A DNA stretch of 64,000 nucleotides from assembly GCF_006345805.1 (NCBI RefSeq), contig NC_043017.1, positions 7,130,001 to 7,194,000 of the forward strand. Reading direction: 5' to 3'. Source of the DNA: Octopus sinensis (taxonomy: Eukaryota). How positions within the stretch are numbered: position 1 is the stretch's first letter; each line of letters starts with the position of its first letter. This document shows positions 28,893 to 42,963 of the stretch, piece by piece. The position numbers were made by a program, and so were the translations under genes. The notes beneath the pieces were generated by a model that searched no databases, was not told where the DNA came from, and saw only the letters and a list, made by a program, of their open reading frames with translations.

Positions 28893-28895
28893 ATG
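28893..28895 (+). CDS. RPL36A: 60S ribosomal protein L36a/eL42, coding exon 1 (ATG only)
   Basis: ATG followed directly by donor GTGAGT; supplies the Met for exon 2 (VNVPKT...). Confidence 0.85.
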
Positions 28896-30243
28896 GTGAG
28901 TACACGTTTCTAATTTTTCCAGATTAATCCCTTACCATCTTGCATCATTTACAATATATATTCACCATAAACCTTTTTATTAACACATATAGGTCTGTTT
29001 TATTCCATTTTATGAAACTTACGTATTTTAAAACTGAGCCTAAAAGGTTTTATAAGCAAAATTTTTCTCCATGTCGGAGTCTAAAAACTTGTACAGTTGT
29101 TGCAAGTTCAGAGCTTAAATATGTTTTTCTTCTAAATTTTCCCCTCATCTTTCAAATAATTTAGAGAATATACTTTTAATGTTACGTTAGTTTTGCCAGT
29201 TTTATCTATTGTGTATTATTATTATTTATAATAAGCTTTTAGTGATGATATTTTAATGTCTATAATCACATGGTGTCAGCCTTCTACATAAAAATTACTG
29301 AATATGTTGGATTTATCAATACTAAATACCATGAATTTATACAGTTTATCAGCATTAAACAAGCTTTTGTATGCATATAAACATATATAGGTAGTATTAT
29401 ATATATGTATAGGTAGGTATATACTTTTTTAAATTTAAAAGTTTGTAATGTTTCAGGAGATCTGGTTTCTGGTGAAGACCCTCCACTTCATCTATTGATT
29501 CCATTTCTCAATTATAACAACCGTCCTTCAATATACACACACATATACATTTGATTGATCTAGCATAAACTTTGAAAGTAATAAGTTAGTGGATGGAAAT
29601 GCTGTTAAGGACCATTGAGGAGCCCCACTACTTGAACACGGAGGTCCCGAAGCTTCTACGTAACGATGTGTAGGGTAGGGTTAGTTTTTAGGGTTTACGG
29701 TGTCGTTACACGTCTGCACAGCGTACATTTAGAATGCTTTTGTACGTAACACCTGCATTTAAGTATTACCTGAAAATCAACATTCAAGAGGTCTCCTGCA
29801 GTTTCGGGATAACTCATCTAAAATTTGAACGAGCAATGGTTTGTTTAGTCGGCAGTTTTTAAAAAAGTGAAAATTTATTGAAAGAGGAACAAATGAGGTA
29901 TAATGTACTCGAATTCAAGTGTTGATGTTTAGGCTCGGGTTTGTCCTTATTGAGCAGAGGAGACCTACGACTCTGGGTTAAAGGTATTCCACCCACGACC
30001 ATGTTTTATGTATATCAGGAATGACATCATTGCAGGGATATCTGGCTGTTATTTTTAGCAGTCAACTGTCCCTTGTTTTAAAGACTATTGGCTGATCGAG
30101 GTTGAACGAATTTTGGTAAACCAGGGAAGCTTAAGGCCTTAATTTTCGTTATGTATCCATCACTATCACATCAGCAAACTCAGCTTATCTAGTTTCTGTT
30201 AAGATTTGTTCCCTAAATTTTATATTTATATTTTGTCTCGCAG

Positions 30244-30355
30244 GTGAACGTCCCCAAAACCCGGCGGACCTACTGCAAAGGTAGAAAATGCAGGAAACAT
30301 ACTCTTCACAAGGTGTCACAGTACAAGGCTGGTAAAGCCTCACTATGTGCCCAAG
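30244..30355 (+). CDS. RPL36A: RPL36A/eL42 coding exon 2
   Basis: Acceptor tgtctcgcag; [37 protein letters not shown] plus 1 nt; donor GTAAGA. Confidence 0.97.
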
Positions 30356-31609
30356 GTAAGACCCTAAAGTTGTATTTGTATTTTTACTGTTATCTCTGCA
30401 CAATGCATCTAATGATCCACGAAGAAGTGACGTAGTGTCATAATCATAAGTACATGGCCATGGTAGGTATTAAGCCTTTCATTCCCTATGGACTGTGGGC
30501 CATCGGCGACTTTTCTCCACTGTTCTCAGCTCTGAGCTGTCCCTGAAGGTCTTCCTCTCCCAGCCCTTGGTTTTGGATTGTCACTGATGTTCCTGTAACT
30601 TTACTATTCTCTTTGTGGGGTTGTTGGCCCTATGCAAACCGGTTTTTACTTCTGGGAAGGGGATGACCGTATTAGTCAGGCTTTGACCTGTCTGGCATAG
30701 GCCCTCCAAGGAGCTTGCATTGAGTTGGTGCTGCTCAAGGGTTAGGGTTGGCATTAAGGCACACTGCGACACAAGAACTGGACTTGCGGTAGATATTCGC
30801 ACGAGTTGTGGTGCAAGTGTAAAGTTTGCTGTTGGTTTGGCTTGAACGACAGTTTTGATGCCAGATTAACTTGCTGCCATTCACATGGTATGAGAAACTT
30901 CCTGAGATCCTTTAGCAACTCTCCGTATTTTGGACAGTTTCGATGTATCTATTGCTTGTTGCCTGTGTTTCTGATACTGAAGTGGGTGAAGGGAGTGGCA
31001 TAAAATGCTTTTGAGGGTGATTTTGAAAGTTTTTTTCAAAATCACAATTCTTTGCTGTATGAAATACATGAGTACTTTTTCAAAAAGGGAAAGGGCTAAC
31101 CTTTATGTAACTTCAAGGGAGAGTTATTCTAAAACACCACTGTATTTAATGTTCATAGTCTATATAATCGATTTACTTCGACTGACGATCGTGTTTATCT
31201 CAGCTGAAATGATTAGCCAACTGCTGCAGTATGTGCTTATATGCATCCACGTGGTTAAATTTACAAATAAAATACAGAAATCATGAGGAATGCTAAGTAA
31301 AATGGTCGAAGTAGGAAAGTTCTCTTTTTTTTTTTTATATTGATGATATGAATTCTGTTAAGGGTCCTTAATAAGAGCAGTGATCATCTACTCAGTAGAG
31401 GCTATGTTGGTAACCTTCATTGTAAATATTAGGGAGTCTGTATTTAAGAATTTTTTAAGGGATAATACGTAGTTAAATCGAAGCAGGAGGAAGGGGTTTC
31501 ATTCGACAACCTACATGTTGCTTTGAACCTAGCACTTGTTTGTCGCCAACGAGTCTTATGAATTCACTGTCTTGAAATAGGCTATCCTTCCAAAGCTCGT
31601 TGATATATA

Positions 31610-31640
<31 letters not shown>

Positions 31641-32090
31641 CTAGTAAATAATCTTAGAAGCAAGACCTGAATGTCTCACCTTTTCTCTGATCTTTCTAAG
31701 CCTTGCCCCTTTTGTATATCCAATAATTTGTAATTAACGTAGTTACGTCCCTTCTTTTGTCAAAATTATTTTGATATTTGTAAGAGTTAGAAAACCTTAA
31801 TGTCGAGTTTGTAAAGCGTAATTGTTGCATGTCTGTGATTCCATTTCATTCGTTAACTGTTTTAGTATTAAGAAGCGAGTCATTCCTTCATTTAGGGAGG
31901 TGGATCCATTACGGGGAACTCCTGTGGTTTCTCTCATTTGGGTGAGAAATTCTGGCAATAGGGAGACAACTGCTGTATCCTTGTAGGGAAGGACTCTTTA
32001 GAATTAATCAGTTAACTGAGAATCGGATCCTAGGTTGTAATTGTGTTTTGTCTTATATATTGGAATTAAAAATGTTTTATTTATTTGTAG

Positions 32091-32158
32091 GTAAGAGACG
32101 TTACGACAGGAAACAAAGAGGTTATGGTGGTCAGACCAAACCTATCTTTCACAAAAAG
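32091..32158 (+). CDS. RPL36A: RPL36A/eL42 coding exon 3
   Basis: Acceptor ttatttgtag; (G)[22 protein letters not shown] containing the GGQ motif; donor GTACGT; phase matches exon 2. Confidence 0.97.
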
Positions 32159-32280
32159 GTACGTATATTCGCCTGTCTTTTTTAATGTTCTCTCTTTCTG
32201 AATGGCTCGAGTATTATGTTGGCTGCCTTACCAGTGTTATGAGTTCAGGGTGTGAAAATTTGCTTTTCGTATTTCTCTAG

Positions 32281-32397
32281 GCTAAAACCACCAAGAAAAT
32301 TGTCCTTCGAATGGAGTGTACAGAATGCAAATATAGAAAACAACTGCCAATTAAACGGTGTAAGCACTTTGAGCTTGGAGGTGACAAGAAAAAGAAG
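32281..32397 (+). CDS. RPL36A: RPL36A/eL42 coding exon 4
   Basis: Acceptor atttctctag; [39 protein letters not shown]; non-canonical donor AAG|GCAAGT. Confidence 0.95.
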
Positions 32398-32464
32398 GCA
32401 AGTCCTGTTTTTATTCTTCCTACTTTTTGTGCATTTGAACAGTCATTTTGTTTTTGCACTAACA

Positions 32465-32651
32465 TCTTCCTGTACATCAGTGTCCAGCTGTAGTCATTAT
32501 GACCAGTGTTTTTGCATTGGTCAGTTGACCGTGTCAGTTGTGATTGTACCCAGGGAAGGAGATTAAACTGTCAGGATTAAGACGAATGGACCCAGTGCAA
32601 CCTCTTTCTTAATGTTGAATGACTGGTGTCTCGCATTCACCTGCTACAATT
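32465..32651 (+). ncRNA. Box H/ACA-like RNA, subfamily A, copy 1 (RPL36A intron 4)
   Basis: Long 5' hairpin (TCTTCC...GGAAGG), H box AGATTA at 32560-32565, 3' hairpin CAGG/CCTG, ACA at 32646-32648. Confidence 0.75.
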
Positions 32652-33418
32652 CGATTGTTCTATTTGATGATTGGTGTTCAGTATCTTTATAAAATAAATG
32701 TAACATTTGGGTAGTGACTGCAATTCCTTGAGCAGTATCATGATGGAACCAGTAATGCGGTTCCAGTTAAGAACTGACCAGCTTAGGTCAGAGAATGTCT
32801 GGCCCTGGTGTCCATTGTGTGATCTTGTTAAACTGCTGTTATTCTCCTGCATCTGTGTTTGTTCAGGTAAGGCAGGATGGGTAGAGGGATTTCCATAGTC
32901 TTATCAGTAGCATTGCAAAATTATTTTAACCCCTATATCCTTCATCTTACTAAGAAATACGTAGTGGTAGATATGATTGTGGTTTCGTTAGTTGTACAGT
33001 CTGGTCTTCAATGGTGGTGGTCATCATCAGTGTTGTACTTTGCTAATCAAAAAGTCACTTGCTGTCCTGAGGTAGCATTGATCAGCTTATATACAATAAT
33101 AGTACCATGGTTTTCATATAAGCAAAACCCCTTTTCATATTGTTCCTTATCGTAAGCAACCCTTACTCGTTATTATCGGTCAGTGTTGGCAATGGAAGTA
33201 GGTCCTTATTGGCGACACTGCAGATGGTAATGTTGAGGTAGCTGTTGTGTTGTCGTTTCTCTCAGTAATAAAGTTTATTGTTTTGAATGTACCATAAGGA
33301 AAGGTGTTAGTCAATTGGTAGAATGTGTTTTATGTCACTTGTGTGTGGTTAGTTTCTGTTCAGGTAACTGATTGCATTTCTTGTTTATATTTTGTATCAT
33401 GCAGTAATAGCAATAATA

Positions 33419-33602
33419 CCTTCCTGTACATCAGTGTCCAGCTGTAGTCATTATGACCAGTGTGTATGCATTGGTCAGTTGACCGTGTCAGTTGTGATTG
33501 TACCCAGGGAAGGAAATAAACTCAGGATTAAGACGTATGGACCCAGTGCAACCTCTTTCTTAATGTTGAATGACTGGTGTCTCGCACTCACCTGAAACAC
33601 CT
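33419..33602 (+). ncRNA. Box H/ACA-like RNA, subfamily A, copy 2
   Basis: Near-identical to copy 1; H box variant AAATAA still fits ANANNA; ACA at 33597-33599. Confidence 0.75.
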
Positions 33603-34257
33603 TCTAGCTTGTTCATATTGATGTGAGAACACGAAATATGGTGTAATCTCATCAAAGAAATTCTTCTCTTAAATATATTTATATGTAGAGTCATAGTTTC
33701 AGGAAATTTTCTTTGTTTTGATTTCATTTAGCAACAACTCGTTTTGGTTTTAGTATGGAAACTTAATCCTTTCCCATTTAACTTGGTCATTTCTGACCCA
33801 ATTGTTGTTTTCTGTTCAGACAAGCCAGGTCTGACCTCTCAAACCTACACTACTATATCATTCTCTAAAGTAATTATGTTGTTGAAATTTCAAAGCTATG
33901 AGATCATTTAAAACTGAATAAATAAGCTTTGTTTGACAGTAATCTGAATGCTAAAGGGTCAACGTCTTCTCATTGTCGACTAACTACTGTCTTACTACCA
34001 TTACCATTGAGGTCTGACAGCATATAAAGCCTGAGCATTCAATGGGCATTGTGTAATTTCTTAAATGCAGCTCTTCACTTAATTTATACACACCTATTTA
34101 ATTAACTTTTATTGATGTTAACATAGAAATGTTGCTCTGATTTCATTTAGCAATGAACTCTTTTTTTGATTAGCAACCTTTGTGCCAGGATTGAGATGAA
34201 AACTTAAAACCTCATTAAGATTTGATTTATTAATATTGCTTTCATATAGTTTATATA

Positions 34258-34428
34258 CTTTCCTGTACATTCTTTGTCTGGCTGTAGTTAGTGTGTCCAG
34301 TGTATGTGTATATATACTGGCCATTGATTGTGTCAGTTGTGATCATGGAGGGACATTTACACTTAGGATTGACTAGACCCAGTACAGTCGCTACATTAAC
34401 TGGCTTCTCAGTGTTGCCTGCTACATTA
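34258..34428 (+). ncRNA. Box H/ACA-like RNA, subfamily B, copy 3 (degenerate)
   Basis: Homologous to copy 8; ACA at 34423-34425 kept but H box reads ACATTT. Confidence 0.45.
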
Positions 34429-34566
34429 TTTCAGCAGTTGAATGTAAAAACTGTATTCAAATCACTTCTAGTTTATTTCACTAATCTACATCTCTGGTTA
34501 ATGTAAGAAGTCAATATTTTTACATTGATTTGGCTTAAAGACGGTCTGGTTGGGCTGGGGAATATA

Positions 34567-34715
34567 CCTTCCTGTACATCAGTGGCTAGTGTGTATACAT
34601 TGGTCAGTTGTGATTGTACCTAGGGAAGGAGATTAAACTGTTAGGATTTGGATGTATGGACCCAGTGCAACCTCTTAATGTTGGATGGCTGGTGTCTCAC
34701 TCATCTGCTACATGT
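34567..34715 (+). ncRNA. Box H/ACA-like RNA, subfamily A, copy 4 (internally deleted)
   Basis: Deletions on both arms shorten the 5' hairpin; AGATTA and ACA (34710-34712) retained. Confidence 0.55.
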
Positions 34716-36253
34716 CTTTTCATTTGGGTTGACTTGCTGTGGTAGGTATATAATATGAGTAGCCATTTGTTAATGCAGGTGGTTGCATTACATATCAGTC
34801 CCTAAAGCTTGGTATATTTTTTTTTTAAATGGGGTTCACAATACAATAATTATCACTTACAGTACCCATTGTCCATGCTTGCATGGGTTGGACAGTTTGG
34901 CAAGCTGCAGAATTACATTAAGCTCTGATATGGGCTCTGCAGCTCATCGCTTGTTACCTGATGTACCGACTAATTGCTCAACCTCCATTTCACCTAATCT
35001 ACACCATGTAGCTGTTGGGGTCAGGGTATTGAAGACAAAAAATCAATTTTGCTTCTGTGTATGCAGTCTTTTTTTTTTTTCTTTTAAATTCGTTTATATC
35101 TCTTGTGAACAAATCATCTGCTTCAAAGCCATGTGAAGTATGAGTTCCTTTACTTGAATGTGTGGCAGCTTGCAAGCAGGAAAGGAATATAGTTATAAAA
35201 CAGTGCCCCAGTAGCACATTCGTCTGACCCATGCAAGCATGAAATAGCAAGAGTAAAGCTAATCCAACTGCTGATCTTTTCTGTTTACAATTACTGTAGC
35301 ACGATTAAATCATACCACAGTATTGCCCAATACATGCTTCACAAATTGTAATGTTCTCGGTTTACTTGGCATATATTGCCAGAAAGCCATTGGGCTTCAT
35401 ATGTCATGTACTGACATTCAAAATGTATCCTATTTATACTAGAATAATAGGGTCACCCAAAGGCTCATCTGTACTCTTCCTTTTCTCTCTCCTCTCCCCA
35501 CATCAACATCTCTTTTAATAGAATGTTTCCTTCAGCATGGAAAGAGGGCACTTGTTTGTTTTTTGCGAGGAATTTGTTCTATGATAAAAATCATTTGATT
35601 TCCTCTGTGAAGTTGGCTGAGAATTGAGCCCTTGCTGGGTGGGGCATGGCTAAACACCATTTAGACTGGTTGGTTTCTCTGCCCACACCCTCCATCTTCC
35701 TCGTTGCTTTTTCTTTCTTTCTTAGTTGAGGTAATTCTGGGAGGGATTTTCCCTTGGTAATCTAATTTTTTACACTTTAAATTTCTTTTCTTTCTAAAAC
35801 TTCATCTTAGAAAGAGGGATTGTTATCATTGTCAGGGTTGAGTTTTCATTTACTTCTGGTGTCTGAATGTGAAACCAATGCTTGGTTTGTTAAATTACAG
35901 AAAATATATTATGTGGAGAGGGAACATTTGGAAACTGGAGAATTTTTACACCATAGATAAACTGTTGTGTTAAGCAGTTACTTAGTGAAGCCACATGTTA
36001 TCTCTGGTGTTGTAGGACTTCTGTTGATAACTTTGTTAAAATATGGTTTTGTGTTATAAGCCATTAATTTCTGAGTTGGTTAGTGGCAGGGAAAGGCATA
36101 AGTAATCTCTTGCTGCCCTAGTTTCTTTTCATTTAGCAATAAGCTCTTTGTTTTAGGTTTAAAATGCTATATTTATGCCAGGCTTGGTCTGGAAACCTAA
36201 TTATCTCCTCAAACTAGGTTTATACTTTGTTAATATTATGTATAGTTTGTATA

Positions 36254-36366
36254 CTTTCTTGTGGATTGTATGCGTCTTTCTGCAGTTGTGACCAGTGTGT
36301 GTATGTATATTTATATATATAGGTCATTGACTATGGTGATTTTTAATTGTATAAAAGGAGATATAT
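36254..36366 (+). pseudogene. Decayed subfamily B copy 5 (5' hairpin remnant)
   Basis: Residual similarity (gtgaccagtgtgtg...ggtcattgact) and the same flanking blocks as copies 3 and 8; no 3' hairpin recognised. Confidence 0.4.
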
Positions 36367-36700
36367 TAGCATTTACATTGTTATATTTCTATTGAAATAG
36401 GCAGCTTTGAGTTAATTTTGGTTTTAAATTTAGATCACTTGAAACCAGGGGTGATTTGGGGAAGTTGATATGGAAAGGTTTGATTTGAGGTTTAGGCTAG
36501 ACCAAAAATTGTCATTAGGTACAATGGTTGGTCTCCCATTGTTGGCTGAGGTGTTGTATTCAAATCTCTTCTAGTTTATTTCATGAATCCAGTCTGTATT
36601 AATCATGTTCTTGAATGTTTTTACATTAGTTTGATCAGAAAGCAATGTGGTGGTTTGTGTGTGTGTGTGTCAGTGTATAAAAGTTTAATATTTGAAAATA

Positions 36701-36887
36701 CCTTCCTGTACATCAGTGTCCAGCTGTAGTCATTATGTCCAGTGTTTTTGCATTGGTCAGTTGACCGTGTCAGTTGTGATTGTACCCAGGGAAGGAGATT
36801 AAACTGTCAGGATTAAGACGTATGGACCCAGTGCAACCTCTTTCTTAATGTTGAGTGACTGGTGTCTCGGACTCACCTGCTACATAG
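36701..36887 (+). ncRNA. Box H/ACA-like RNA, subfamily A, copy 6
   Basis: Full-length; AGATTA H box; ACA at 36882-36884. Confidence 0.75.
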
Positions 36888-37529
36888 CTTTTCCTTTGGG
36901 TTGTATTGCTCTGGTAGATACTGGTGGCTTGTTGTCATCTGTTGCATGTTTTTCTTCAGCAAGAGACATGAAGTTTTGGTGGTTAGAGAAATAGATTGGA
37001 TTTTTTACATCCTGTCTGTTGAATAAAAGAATATATTTCACATGCCTTATAAATATGATTTTGCTTGACCTTTTGGCATTTAAACTAACCACATCCTGCC
37101 TTTTATACTTGCCCTGTAATATAAGATAGAGATACTGAAGCTAGGAGATGGTGCATGATTCAAAACAATGATTGTAAATTTGGTAGGGTCGTTTGAATTC
37201 CAAAGGTTTATGAGCTGAGTTCCTTAATTAGGCAACCATTGTTCCCTTTATGTAGCACTTTCCAATGCAGGGTTATTCAGTTTGTAGTGTTAATGAAATA
37301 AACTTGGTTGACTTCATATTTAACCCTTCAGCATTCAGATTATTCTGTCAAATACGTTTGTGTATTGTTTTGAATTAGCCATGCATTATCTCATTGCTTT
37401 GAGATTTTGATGTTTACCTTTAGGATGATGATGTAGGGTAGGTGTGAGAGGACAGTAGAAAGTTTGGGTTGGCTTAAATGCCAAAAGGTTGAGTCCTACA
37501 TGTATGGTGAGTTAGCTAATGTGCTAATA

Positions 37530-37715
37530 CCTTCCTGTACATCAGTGTCCAGCTGTAGTCATTATGACCAGTGCTTTTGCATTGGTCAGTTGACCGTGTC
37601 AGTTGTGATTGTACCTAGGGAAGGAAATAAACTGTCAGGATTAAGACGTATGGACCCAGTGCAACCTCTTTCTTAATGTTGAATGACTGGTGTCTCGCAC
37701 TCACCTGCTACATAG
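37530..37715 (+). ncRNA. Box H/ACA-like RNA, subfamily A, copy 7
   Basis: Full-length; AAATAA H box; ACA at 37710-37712. Confidence 0.75.
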
Positions 37716-38073
37716 CTTTTCATTTTGGTCATATTGGTGTACTGTTTTTATAAGTAGAAGCACTTTATAGGACTTGGTGTAATGTCTTCAGTGAAGCTGA
37801 TAAACTTACTTGTGATTAACATATTTAGGACTGCAGGTTGTAATACTCGCAGTTTGGTATTGTAGCCTTACATCTATACTTTCGTGTTTGAATAACCTCA
37901 TTATACTTAGCTATAGTTTCAGTAAATTGAGTTTATTCATGCTAAGATAGAGATGATGACGTTTTCATTGTTGCTCTAATTTTATTCAACAAATTCCATT
38001 CTGTCCATTGGCATGGAAGCCTGTGTCTTCTCAGTTTAGATTTGTATTAGTGTTTGTGTATAATTTATATATA

Positions 38074-38115
38074 CCTTCCTCTGCATTCTATGTCTGACTG
38101 TAGTCATTGTGTTCA

Positions 38116-38177
<62 letters not shown>

Positions 38178-38292
38178 TGGCCATTGACTGTCAGTTGTGA
38201 TTAAACAAAGGGAGGGACATTAACAATCAGGATTGACTTGACCCAGTGCAGTCGCTAAGTTGACTGGTGTCTCACTGTTGCCTGATACATTA
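38074..38292 (+). ncRNA. Box H/ACA-like RNA, subfamily B, copy 8
   Basis: H box ACATTA; lower stem ATCAGG/CCTGAT; upper stem GACCCAGT/ACTGGTGTC 15 nt from ACA (38287-38289); (GT)n(TA)n expansion at the apex of the 5' hairpin. Confidence 0.6.
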
Positions 38293-38494
38293 ATTTCAAC
38301 TGTTGGATAAGAAATTGTATTCAAATCTCTTCCACTTTACTTCATTGATCTCTCTCTAACATAAGCTAGTATTTGTTTTTTACTAAAAAGACTATGAGAT
38401 GGTCTGTAAAATCAATTTATACAATTATTTTTGTCACTTGTATATATGTTTATTTAAAATTGCTAAAACTGCTTTTGTTTAATATTTGAAAATA

Positions 38495-38681
38495 CCTTCC
38501 TGTACATCAGTGTCCAGCTGTAGTCATTATGACCAGTGTTTTCGCATTGGTCAGTTGACCGTGTCAGTTGTGATTGTACTCAGGGAAGGAGATTAAACTG
38601 TCAGGATTAAGACGTATGGGCCCAGTGCAACCTCTTTCTTAATGTTGAGTGACTGGTGTCTCGCACTCACCTGCTACATAG
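38495..38681 (+). ncRNA. Box H/ACA-like RNA, subfamily A, copy 9
   Basis: Full-length; AGATTA H box; ACA at 38676-38678. Confidence 0.75.
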
Positions 38682-39352
38682 CTTTTCCTGTGGGTTGTAT
38701 TGCTCTGGTGGCTTGCTGTCATCTCTTACAGGTTTTTCTTCAACCAGAGATATATGAAGCTTTGGTGTTTAGTGAAAAGGATTAGGTTTTTTTTTTACAT
38801 AATGTCTGTTGAATAAGAGAATACGCTTTGGTTTCCAAGTTATTTTATCCCCCATGATTGGTATGGCAGGAGAGGCTCTTCAGTTTTTCCTTCATGTGAC
38901 AGACTGTGGAGCACTGTCACCCCATCCAACCTGCTTCAGCGTCATAAGGCATACATAGACACACTGGTTGTACATCAAATGGCTATGGAGTTCCAGGAGA
39001 ATAGAACAGGAATCAAAGGGGTCCCTCGCCAAAAAAAAGTAGGAGCTACTGCTGTGGATTGAGTGCTGTTGCATTGCTGCCCAGAGCTAAACAGTAGATA
39101 GATCTATTGGTTTCAGTTACATTTGCATCTCTCTTCTGTGTATAACAGATTATGATTAGGCTGTTCTCAAAAACTTGTGAGCTCTCAGCTTTGTGGTCAA
39201 TTACAATCATAAGAACAAGCGTGAGAGAAACTGGGCAGTTGGTTTTAATGTCTAACTTTGTGTGTATGCATGATACATGTGAGTGTATATATTTGCGATG
39301 TACATGTGTGTATATTTCTTTTTACTGAAAGCATTTTTCTCTTTCATTTCAG

Positions 39353-39373
39353 GGCCAGATGATTCAGTTTTAA
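39353..39373 (+). CDS. RPL36A: RPL36A/eL42 coding exon 5 (GQMIQF*)
   Basis: Polypyrimidine acceptor ctttcatttcag; encodes the typical eL42 C-terminus GQMIQF-stop; spliced total is 106 aa. Confidence 0.92.
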   Translation, partial: GQMIQF

Positions 39374-40296: not shown

Positions 40297-41203
40297 CTGT
40301 GAAGTAAAAGAGAAGTGATTTATATGGGTTGGAGATAATCAGGATAACATAAGAAACATTTCATTGAAGCAGTTTATATGGCAAAAACAGATCAAATGGC
40401 AAGTGTTCATGAAACTTAATATAACACCTGCTATTTGATCCCTGTTTCTGCCATATAAACTGCTTCAATGAAATGTTGCTTATGTTAGGTCCTATAATTC
40501 AGAAGCGTCTTGGCTTGTTGATGTGGATCAAAACCTCTGCAATAACATCATCAACACTGTCTATTCTACCCTTGTCAGACGAAGTTTATTGAGGCAGATT
40601 TTCTACCAGATGCTCTGCTTGTATGACAGTGACCCTCATTTACAACTAGCACACGAGTTTCCTTTGGTCGAGTTGGGCCTTGCCCAAGGTGGTTGTGAAG
40701 CATGGGTCTCTTGAAGTTTGGTTCGTCAGCTTTTGAAGCTGGAAACTGTTTAAGTAGTTTAAATAACAAGTTGCCACAATAGTGGGTGATTTAGGGGTTA
40801 GGTGGTTGCTGATGAAGGAGCAAAAGCTCCCACAATATGACATACATGCCCATTATCCATTTTTTTCATCTGACATCTCAGATACAAAATGTGCTGGCTA
40901 TAATTTGTATAGAACATTTGGAGAGATAACCGTAACAAGGTTTCAGAATGCTAATGGATGGAAAAGGTCAAATGAACACACTACTTTCTTACCAGGCTAC
41001 AAATTTGGGGTGACAGAGAAGAAAATGTTTGTGTAAGATGTTGCACTATTTCACTTTTCTTTTTCTGCATTGTAGACAATTATATAAGAAATTAATGGAT
41101 TTCTTTCCTTACACTTAATGAAAAGGGCTTCTATTTTTAAGAACCTTTAAGTGGTGTGAAAAAAGAAGAAAAGGTTTAGAATATAAAAGAAATTATCACT
41201 TAC

Positions 41204-42581: not shown

Positions 42582-42963
42582 CTATGAAACAACAAAAAAT
42601 AAAGTTTATGAACAAATGTCATTATCATCATCGTTTTAACGTCTATTTTTCCATGCTTGCATGGGTCAGGTGGAATTCATTGAAGCAGATTTTCTACAGC
42701 TGGATGCCATCCCTGTTTCCAAACAAGGTAATGCATTTTCTTCGTGGTTGGGCATGTCATTTGTTTCCAATCTTCTGTAAAAGAAAACATGCCCAGCCAT
42801 GAGGAACCCTTGTTTGGAATCAGGGATGGCATCCAGCTATAGAAAATCTGCTTCAATGAATTCCACCTGACTGTTGTCTGCTAGACTATTCATCAATCGT
42901 TGCAGATTTTATATTCTTTTGAAAATTCCAGCAAGACAGAATATAAGAGAGAGAGAGGCTTAC

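Follow-up and report, generated by a model that had tools for sequence, protein, structure and literature searches.

An array of box H/ACA RNAs in one intron of RPL36A

We analyzed a 64,000-nucleotide (nt) stretch of the Octopus sinensis genome (NC_043017.1, positions 7,130,001 to 7,194,000), hereafter the window, which contains the ribosomal protein gene RPL36A. Intron 4 of this gene holds an array of RNA elements that a preliminary description had assigned to the small nucleolar RNAs (snoRNAs) of box H/ACA type, as about nine copies of a family it could not name. Our analysis indicates that the intact copies are divergent homologs of SNORA81. It also brings out a point that the description overlooked: the SNORA81 target is missing from Octopus 28S ribosomal RNA (rRNA), and the pocket of the RNA is rewritten.

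The proposed host gene and orientation were borne out by the spliced translation and its Pfam match (Table 1), and the SNORA81-like elements are intronic and sense to RPL36A. The intron that carries them opens with a noncanonical donor, AAG/GCAAGT at 32398-32403, whereas the other three introns of the gene open with GT.

Five near-identical full-length copies lie where they had been described (from 32465, 33419, 36701, 37530 and 38495). They measure 184-187 nt, and every one of the ten pairs is 92-97% identical. Identity falls at or soon after the RNA ends, as had been noticed: in nine of the ten pairs every flanking window scores 0.41-0.59, against a mean of 0.44 and a maximum of 0.53 for random pairs. 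Copies 36701 and 38495 are 89% alike across 357 nt, so that their homology exceeds the RNA. The spacers between copies are unconserved, and spacer blocks recur near the diverged copies.

All five intact copies read hairpin, H box (AGATTA or AAATAA), hairpin and an ACA that lies 3 nt from the end, which places them in the box H/ACA class. An H box of the form ANANNA is present in these copies and in the 38074 copy, but the 34258 copy reads ACATTT. The upper stem lies 14 nt from the ACA; the 15 nt given earlier is obtained if the terminal G-U pair is left out. Of the two proposed hairpins, the 5′ one folds much more stably than shuffled sequences (z of -5.4 and -6.0). Taken by itself, the 3′ hairpin is no more stable than shuffles (z of -0.25 and +0.43) and draws its support from covariation. 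When changes at paired sites among the copies were inspected by eye, four of five retained pairing.

The array totals eight elements plus one remnant consisting of a 5′ half, so the earlier count of about nine holds except for the ninth. A joint covariance model (R3), built with the 34258 copy among its members, scores the internally deleted copy (34567) and the two diverged copies (34258 and 38074) at 60-105 bits. The remnant is not matched by R3 and is linked to the others by BLAST only. The 34258 and 34567 elements have likely decayed.

Table 1. Positions of RPL36A and of the array elements in the window
Feature	Position	Strand	Details
RPL36A/eL42 host gene	28893..39373	+	spliced translation of 106 aa; Pfam Ribosomal_L44 (PF00935) on two exon pieces
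RPL36A coding exons (n = 5)	28893-28895, 30244-30355, 32091-32158, 32281-32397, 39353-39373	+	
RPL36A intron 4	32398..39352	+	GC-AG; 6,955 nt; entire array inside
SNORA81-like copy 1, intact	32465..32651	+	R1 55.7 bits; H box AGATTA 32560-32565; loop motif 32601-32614; ACA 32646-32648
SNORA81-like copy 2, intact except 3 nt missing in hinge	33419..33602	+	R1 54.7 bits; RF01241 21.4 bits; H box AAATAA 33514-33519; loop motif 33552-33565
Diverged relative	34258..34428	+	H box broken (ACATTT); conserved loop gone
Internally deleted copy	34567..34715	+	upper 5′ hairpin shorter; conserved loop minus 4 nt
Remnant, diverged-type 5′ hairpin	~36236..36330	+	3′ hairpin absent; BLAST 67-70% to 34141-34327 and 38054-38146
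SNORA81-like copy 3, intact	36701..36887	+	R1 47.7 bits; one upper-5′-stem pair broken; loop motif 36837-36850
SNORA81-like copy 4, intact	37530..37715	+	R1 55.1 bits; H box AAATAA 37625-37630; loop motif 37665-37678
Diverged relative	38074..38292	+	5′ hairpin expanded by (TG)n(TA)n; H box ACATTA; ACA; other sequence in place of the conserved loop
SNORA81-like copy 5, intact	38495..38681	+	R1 48.1 bits; H box AGATTA 38590-38595; loop motif 38631-38644; ACA 38676-38678

The intact copies are divergent homologs of SNORA81

At gathering level, Rfam returned no match in the window. Below it, the SNORA81 model (RF01241) aligned over all 179 of its positions to 33418-33602 with 21.4 bits; the Rfam check proposed earlier thus finds a named family end to end, but under the cut-off of 45. 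The 14-mer CCUCUUUCUUAAUG is identical between RF01241 and copy 33419 and is unchanged in 5/5 intact copies. A search of the 2.72-Gb genome with RF01241 scored 40 of 305,335 candidates and gave no match, which is uninformative; match counts from this and the other genome searches are lower bounds.

We then turned the array's own motif on metagenomes, as a pattern combining CCUCUUUCUUAAUG, GUCU and the spacing to ACA. It picked out 11 stretches, three of which contain four SNORA81 genes scoring 80-190 bits; the remaining eight have no SNORA81 match and are chance matches. One SNORA81-bearing stretch is flanked by SNORD2 and SNORA63, and two adjoin exons that we read as eIF4A. Motif scans of viral contigs gave no match.

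A covariance model of the four reference SNORA81 genes (R1) scores the five copies at 47.7-55.7 bits over its whole length; the deleted copy follows with 14.2 bits, and the rest are lower. Three of the four reference genes had come to light through a motif taken from the array, which makes R1 partly circular. We therefore built a second model (R2) from the 5′ halves of the reference genes, which are free of the search motif, and it ranks the five copies 1 to 5 among 17 matches (30.9-23.4 bits). In the joint alignment both sides change in 16 of 36 base pairs, and 94.6% of cells pair, compared with 35-50% for slid partners. Pairing is complete (100%) in the 4-bp stem that closes the 12-nt loop, and two of its pairs are swapped.

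The likeness to SNORA81 (HBI-61) runs along the whole molecule: the length (179 model positions, 184-187 nt here), the 5′ ACCUUC stem and the inner stems, GGAAGGAGA ahead of the H box, and the 12-nt loop CUCUUUCUUAAU with its 4-bp closing stem and GUCU 14 nt before ACA. That loop is identical to the loop of vertebrate-type SNORA81 genes. The two differ in host (EIF4A2 there, RPL36A here) and in guide strands, since AAGCA/UACAC is not kept here and the target is C. They differ also in arrangement. Five copies share one intron here, whereas two SNORA81 paralogs on stretch L068 (259-439 and 745-926) occupy separate, neighboring introns of an eIF4A-like gene; one of these has a canonical pocket and the other an altered pocket with the same loop. 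A search of 79 kb surrounding three eIF4A-like exon matches in Octopus, in stretches that may not span whole genes, found no SNORA81-like gene.

Several observations count against this assignment, beginning with the circularity of R1. The best RF01241 score stays under the gathering score, and copy 38495 has an 18-nt match only to the Rfam model. The fifth R2 match, at 23.4 bits, is about level with an unrelated AT-rich match at 23.2 bits, and the covariation counts come from few lineages, with five near-identical rows. Despite these points, we hold with high confidence that the copies are homologous to SNORA81. Because the array falls short of the curated score and departs from SNORA81 in host gene and guide feature, we regard it as a divergent homolog and not as a working guide for the SNORA81 target. 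The earlier remark that the family could not be matched to a named one is accordingly not supported.

The known target of SNORA81 is gone from Octopus 28S

SNORA81 is reported to have a single rRNA target (PMC8759569), which is U4636 of 28S (formerly U4606), in helix 96 next to eL31 (bioRxiv 10.64898/2026.10.06.757013); the target is conserved in Xenopus (PMC6984369).

Three reference genes out of the four have pocket strands AAGCA and UACA(C/U) 14 nt from the H box, which specify a target of the form GUGUA-U-N-UGCUU. This 12-mer occurs 18 nt past the sarcin-ricin motif in the eukaryote-type 28S fragment L103. It aligns gap-free to GUUUG-C-G-CGCUC in Octopus 28S, in the helix that Rfam places after the sarcin-ricin loop. 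We take the aligned helix-96 site to be human 4636, from the published helix assignment and the human sequence. Among 35 ribosomal DNA (rDNA) matches in the genome, the site is C in 29 by script and in another two by eye, the helix is missing in four, and T is found in none.

The pocket has changed as well. The AAGCA strand is gone, and the strands of the array fit neither the old site nor the new 28S sequence; we found no complementarity of the 5′ pocket to helix 96 around U4636. In both minimum free energy and centroid folds, a GUACA/UGUAC pair forms across the 5′ pocket, so that the pocket is predicted to be closed. As read from the genome, then, the Octopus site is C, the pocket is rewritten and the known SNORA81 target is gone here. 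Because a C cannot be marked by pseudouridylation, the copies probably persist in some other role.

Some features of the rRNA sequences deserve mention. The L103 fragment (1-344) sits in a bacterial metagenome-assembled genome record and is likely a binning contaminant. Octopus rDNA is very divergent and GC-rich (L020:1-8854, L022:9026-9901, L046:919-2735), with an 18S of ~2,640 nt, a 28S of ~4,900 nt and long insertions; modification sites elsewhere in the rRNA could have disappeared as well. Further insertions lie at the usual 28S site (L046:2736-7317; L020:5526-7328; L047), presumably of an R2-like retrotransposon. Numerous 28S 3′ fragments scattered over the chromosomes were possibly carried along by this element.

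The conserved 3′ hairpin as a candidate docking site

On balance, the sequence and predicted folds incline us to the view that the conserved 3′ hairpin, serving most probably as a site where a protein docks, is what the RNAs are produced and retained for, and not modification of U4636. This reading seems to us to stand somewhat ahead of a switch to a new target, a decaying relic, joined products and a transposon, in that order.

General H/ACA biology comprises intronic co-transcription, assembly with core proteins, debranching and exonucleolytic trimming (PMC11028025). By analogy, the array would be co-transcribed with RPL36A, dyskerin, NOP10, NHP2 and GAR1 would bind the H and ACA boxes, and the copies would be trimmed from the debranched intron. 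Trimming alone would free the outer ends only and leave long RNAs with snoRNA ends, and release of the inner copies as monomers would depend on endonucleolytic cleavage within the spacers. The 12-nt terminal loop, together with the GUCU stem 14 nt from ACA, is the predicted docking site, and the extra copies are predicted to raise the dose.

We extend this idea further only with reserve. SNORA81 might have a second, guide-independent function in its 12-nt 3′-hairpin loop, kept from vertebrates to an invertebrate, in a lineage where U4636 and the pocket were lost and the gene, relocated to RPL36A, was amplified; we regard this larger proposal as tentative and somewhat doubtful.

A number of considerations weigh against the docking-site reading. 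Everything that speaks for it comes from DNA sequence and predicted folds. A mutant of the guide region does not restore growth of human cells, which argues that what counts there is guiding and no second function, though the authors state that other effects are not excluded (bioRxiv 10.64898/2026.10.06.757013). Repeat cores can also stay alike through gene conversion, with no need for strong selection. The best complement of the loop in rRNA, its spacers and five small nuclear RNAs (snRNAs) lies in internal transcribed spacer 2, within a GGA repeat (-12.1 kcal/mol), and 4 of 30 shuffles did as well or better; because no rRNA or snRNA complement beat shuffles, we consider a protein the most likely docking partner. 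Finally, real guide duplexes are short and often no better than shuffles, so a new target is possible.

We scanned for such a target with the pockets of three copies against 18S, 5.8S, 28S, U1, U2, U4, U5 and U6 of the same genome, and nothing rose above shuffled targets. The 3′ pocket of the 38074 copy, searched with one hand-made target pattern, had no match in the rDNA stretches L020, L046 and L022. The strongest competing explanation is nevertheless that the copies function as ordinary pseudouridylation guides, their 5′ pocket having come to pair with a new U. This U would lie either in an RNA outside the scan or, for example, at L020:8302, within a 28S insertion that is lineage-specific and sits upstream of the sarcin-ricin loop. 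This position is the top 5′-pocket match in 3/3 scanned copies and has the canonical 14-nt spacing. The 3′ strand of copy 33419 makes six Watson-Crick pairs with it, and the C-to-U variants of the other copies still pair as G-U. Shuffling of antisense elements and gain of targets are known for vertebrate snoRNAs (PMC6984369), and L068 has a paralog with an altered pocket. However, shuffled target sets attained the score of 11.5-12 in 2, 5 and 8 cases out of 20, the other strand is largely G-U with one mismatch, and the pocket is predicted shut. Guiding by the 5′ hairpin would also leave the invariant 3′ loop unexplained. A target switch therefore strikes us as unlikely, though it is the rival we take most seriously.

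The array might instead be a decaying relic that lost its purpose once the target became C, arose by unequal crossing-over and has no present function, its cores being homogenized by gene conversion. Four of its nine elements are damaged or diverged, the flanks common to 36701 and 38495 mark a recent duplication, and loss of a snoRNA with a U-to-C change in its rRNA has been described for pug18S-1279 (PMC6984369). Against decay, 9/10 pairs pass from 92-97% identity to a level near background where the RNA ends, and five copies retain the boxes, the pairing and a loop identical to that of vertebrate-type genes. We judge this explanation improbable.

A still weaker case can be made that the product is not a monomer: it could be a set of snoRNA-ended long RNAs (sno-lncRNAs), or the array could act in cis on splicing of its GC-AG host intron. 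Two snoRNAs in one intron do yield sno-lncRNAs, including the H/ACA-ended SLERT (PMC11028025), and the noncanonical GC donor would suit a cis effect. Yet the spacers are unconserved between copies, and the conserved loop is again left unexplained, which makes both versions very improbable.

Duplication within intron 4

Genome searches found intact copies in RPL36A intron 4 only, in keeping with the earlier suggestion of amplification in cis within one intron. A DNA search with the array RNA gave seven matches, six of them in intron 4. The seventh is a 70-nt fragment, 79% identical, on another chromosome (L007:1484-1570, minus strand); it is a lone 5′ hairpin, intermediate in sequence between the two types, within repeat-like DNA. 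All five matches to the loop motif (one for the reversed control) and both matches to the diverged type fall in intron 4. Because homology decays past the RNA ends, 36701 and 38495 share 357 nt, and spacer blocks repeat, we attribute the array to DNA-level duplications of several ages.

The same searches answer the objection, raised in the preliminary description, that many dispersed copies would mark a transposon. Although the L007 fragment lies on another chromosome and the counts are lower bounds, a transposon or snoRNA-derived short interspersed element (SINE) is already largely refuted and barely credible, because intact copies are confined to intron 4; homology moreover extends beyond the RNA ends without poly(A) tails, and neither dispersed copies, A-tails nor target-site duplications were found.

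Comparison with known systems and significance

Intronic clusters, host switching and orphan snoRNAs after target loss each have precedent. In Drosophila, several H/ACA snoRNA genes can share a host intron (PMC3089462), as in the RPL36A array; the array differs in consisting of one family, with spacings of 0.3-2 kb, a total of 6.2 kb and no target identified. SLERT and other sno-lncRNAs likewise have more than one H/ACA snoRNA per excised intron, but there two snoRNAs sit at the ends (PMC11028025), whereas here up to eight elements share the intron. Mammalian SNORA35 is a conserved orphan, with one rRNA target position C and 18S guiding lost (PMC6984369). Like the array, it was kept though its target became C; the SNORA35 sequence was kept, however, while the array's pocket was rewritten and its gene amplified in a new host.

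Modification by human SNORA81 supports growth of ovarian cancer cells (PMC8759569; bioRxiv 10.64898/2026.10.06.757013). A lineage without the target, with five copies and an invariant 3′ loop, makes a second role of the loop testable, human cells included. If the larger, more tentative proposal is true, nature has supplied in Octopus a separation-of-function mutant of a human snoRNA linked to cancer. The locus also offers a one-family, single-intron array in which to study how several H/ACA RNAs leave one lariat. The assignment also extends SNORA81 to an invertebrate that the Rfam model misses. In the literature searched, which included the PMC3511168 supplements and left most subscription journals outside its coverage, no invertebrate SNORA81 and no paper on the array locus surfaced. 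For a squid, 41 H/ACA loci identified by homology are listed in a genome paper (PMC6962438).

Human miR-1248 overlaps SNORA81 (PMC4696412). We dropped the idea of a conserved, miR-1248-like microRNA, as two of the four reference SNORA81 genes have a different 5′ end.

Other features of the window

Recursive splicing was considered as a route of release. The intron has one YAG/GTRA site with a strong pyrimidine tract, and we rejected this route because 393 of 1,000 shuffles contain at least one such site. Between copies 1 and 2, CAG/GTAA occurs twice (32868 and 33365) and resembles recursive splice points, with no excess over shuffles. A TTTCATTTAGCAA block with a pyrimidine tract is repeated at ~33720, 34140 and 36127, upstream of diverged-type copies; it resembles a splice acceptor, or may be mere duplicated spacer.

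A search of the window for transfer RNAs found none, and microRNA matches at 38094-38194 were under the cut-off and produced by the TG/TA repeat. Downstream of RPL36A lie two near-perfect inverted repeats (40345-40487 and 42665-42871; 46 nt at 96% and 64 nt at 97%) that resemble miniature inverted-repeat transposable elements, and the one at 42665-42871 has a 33-nt piece in common with 40574-40606.

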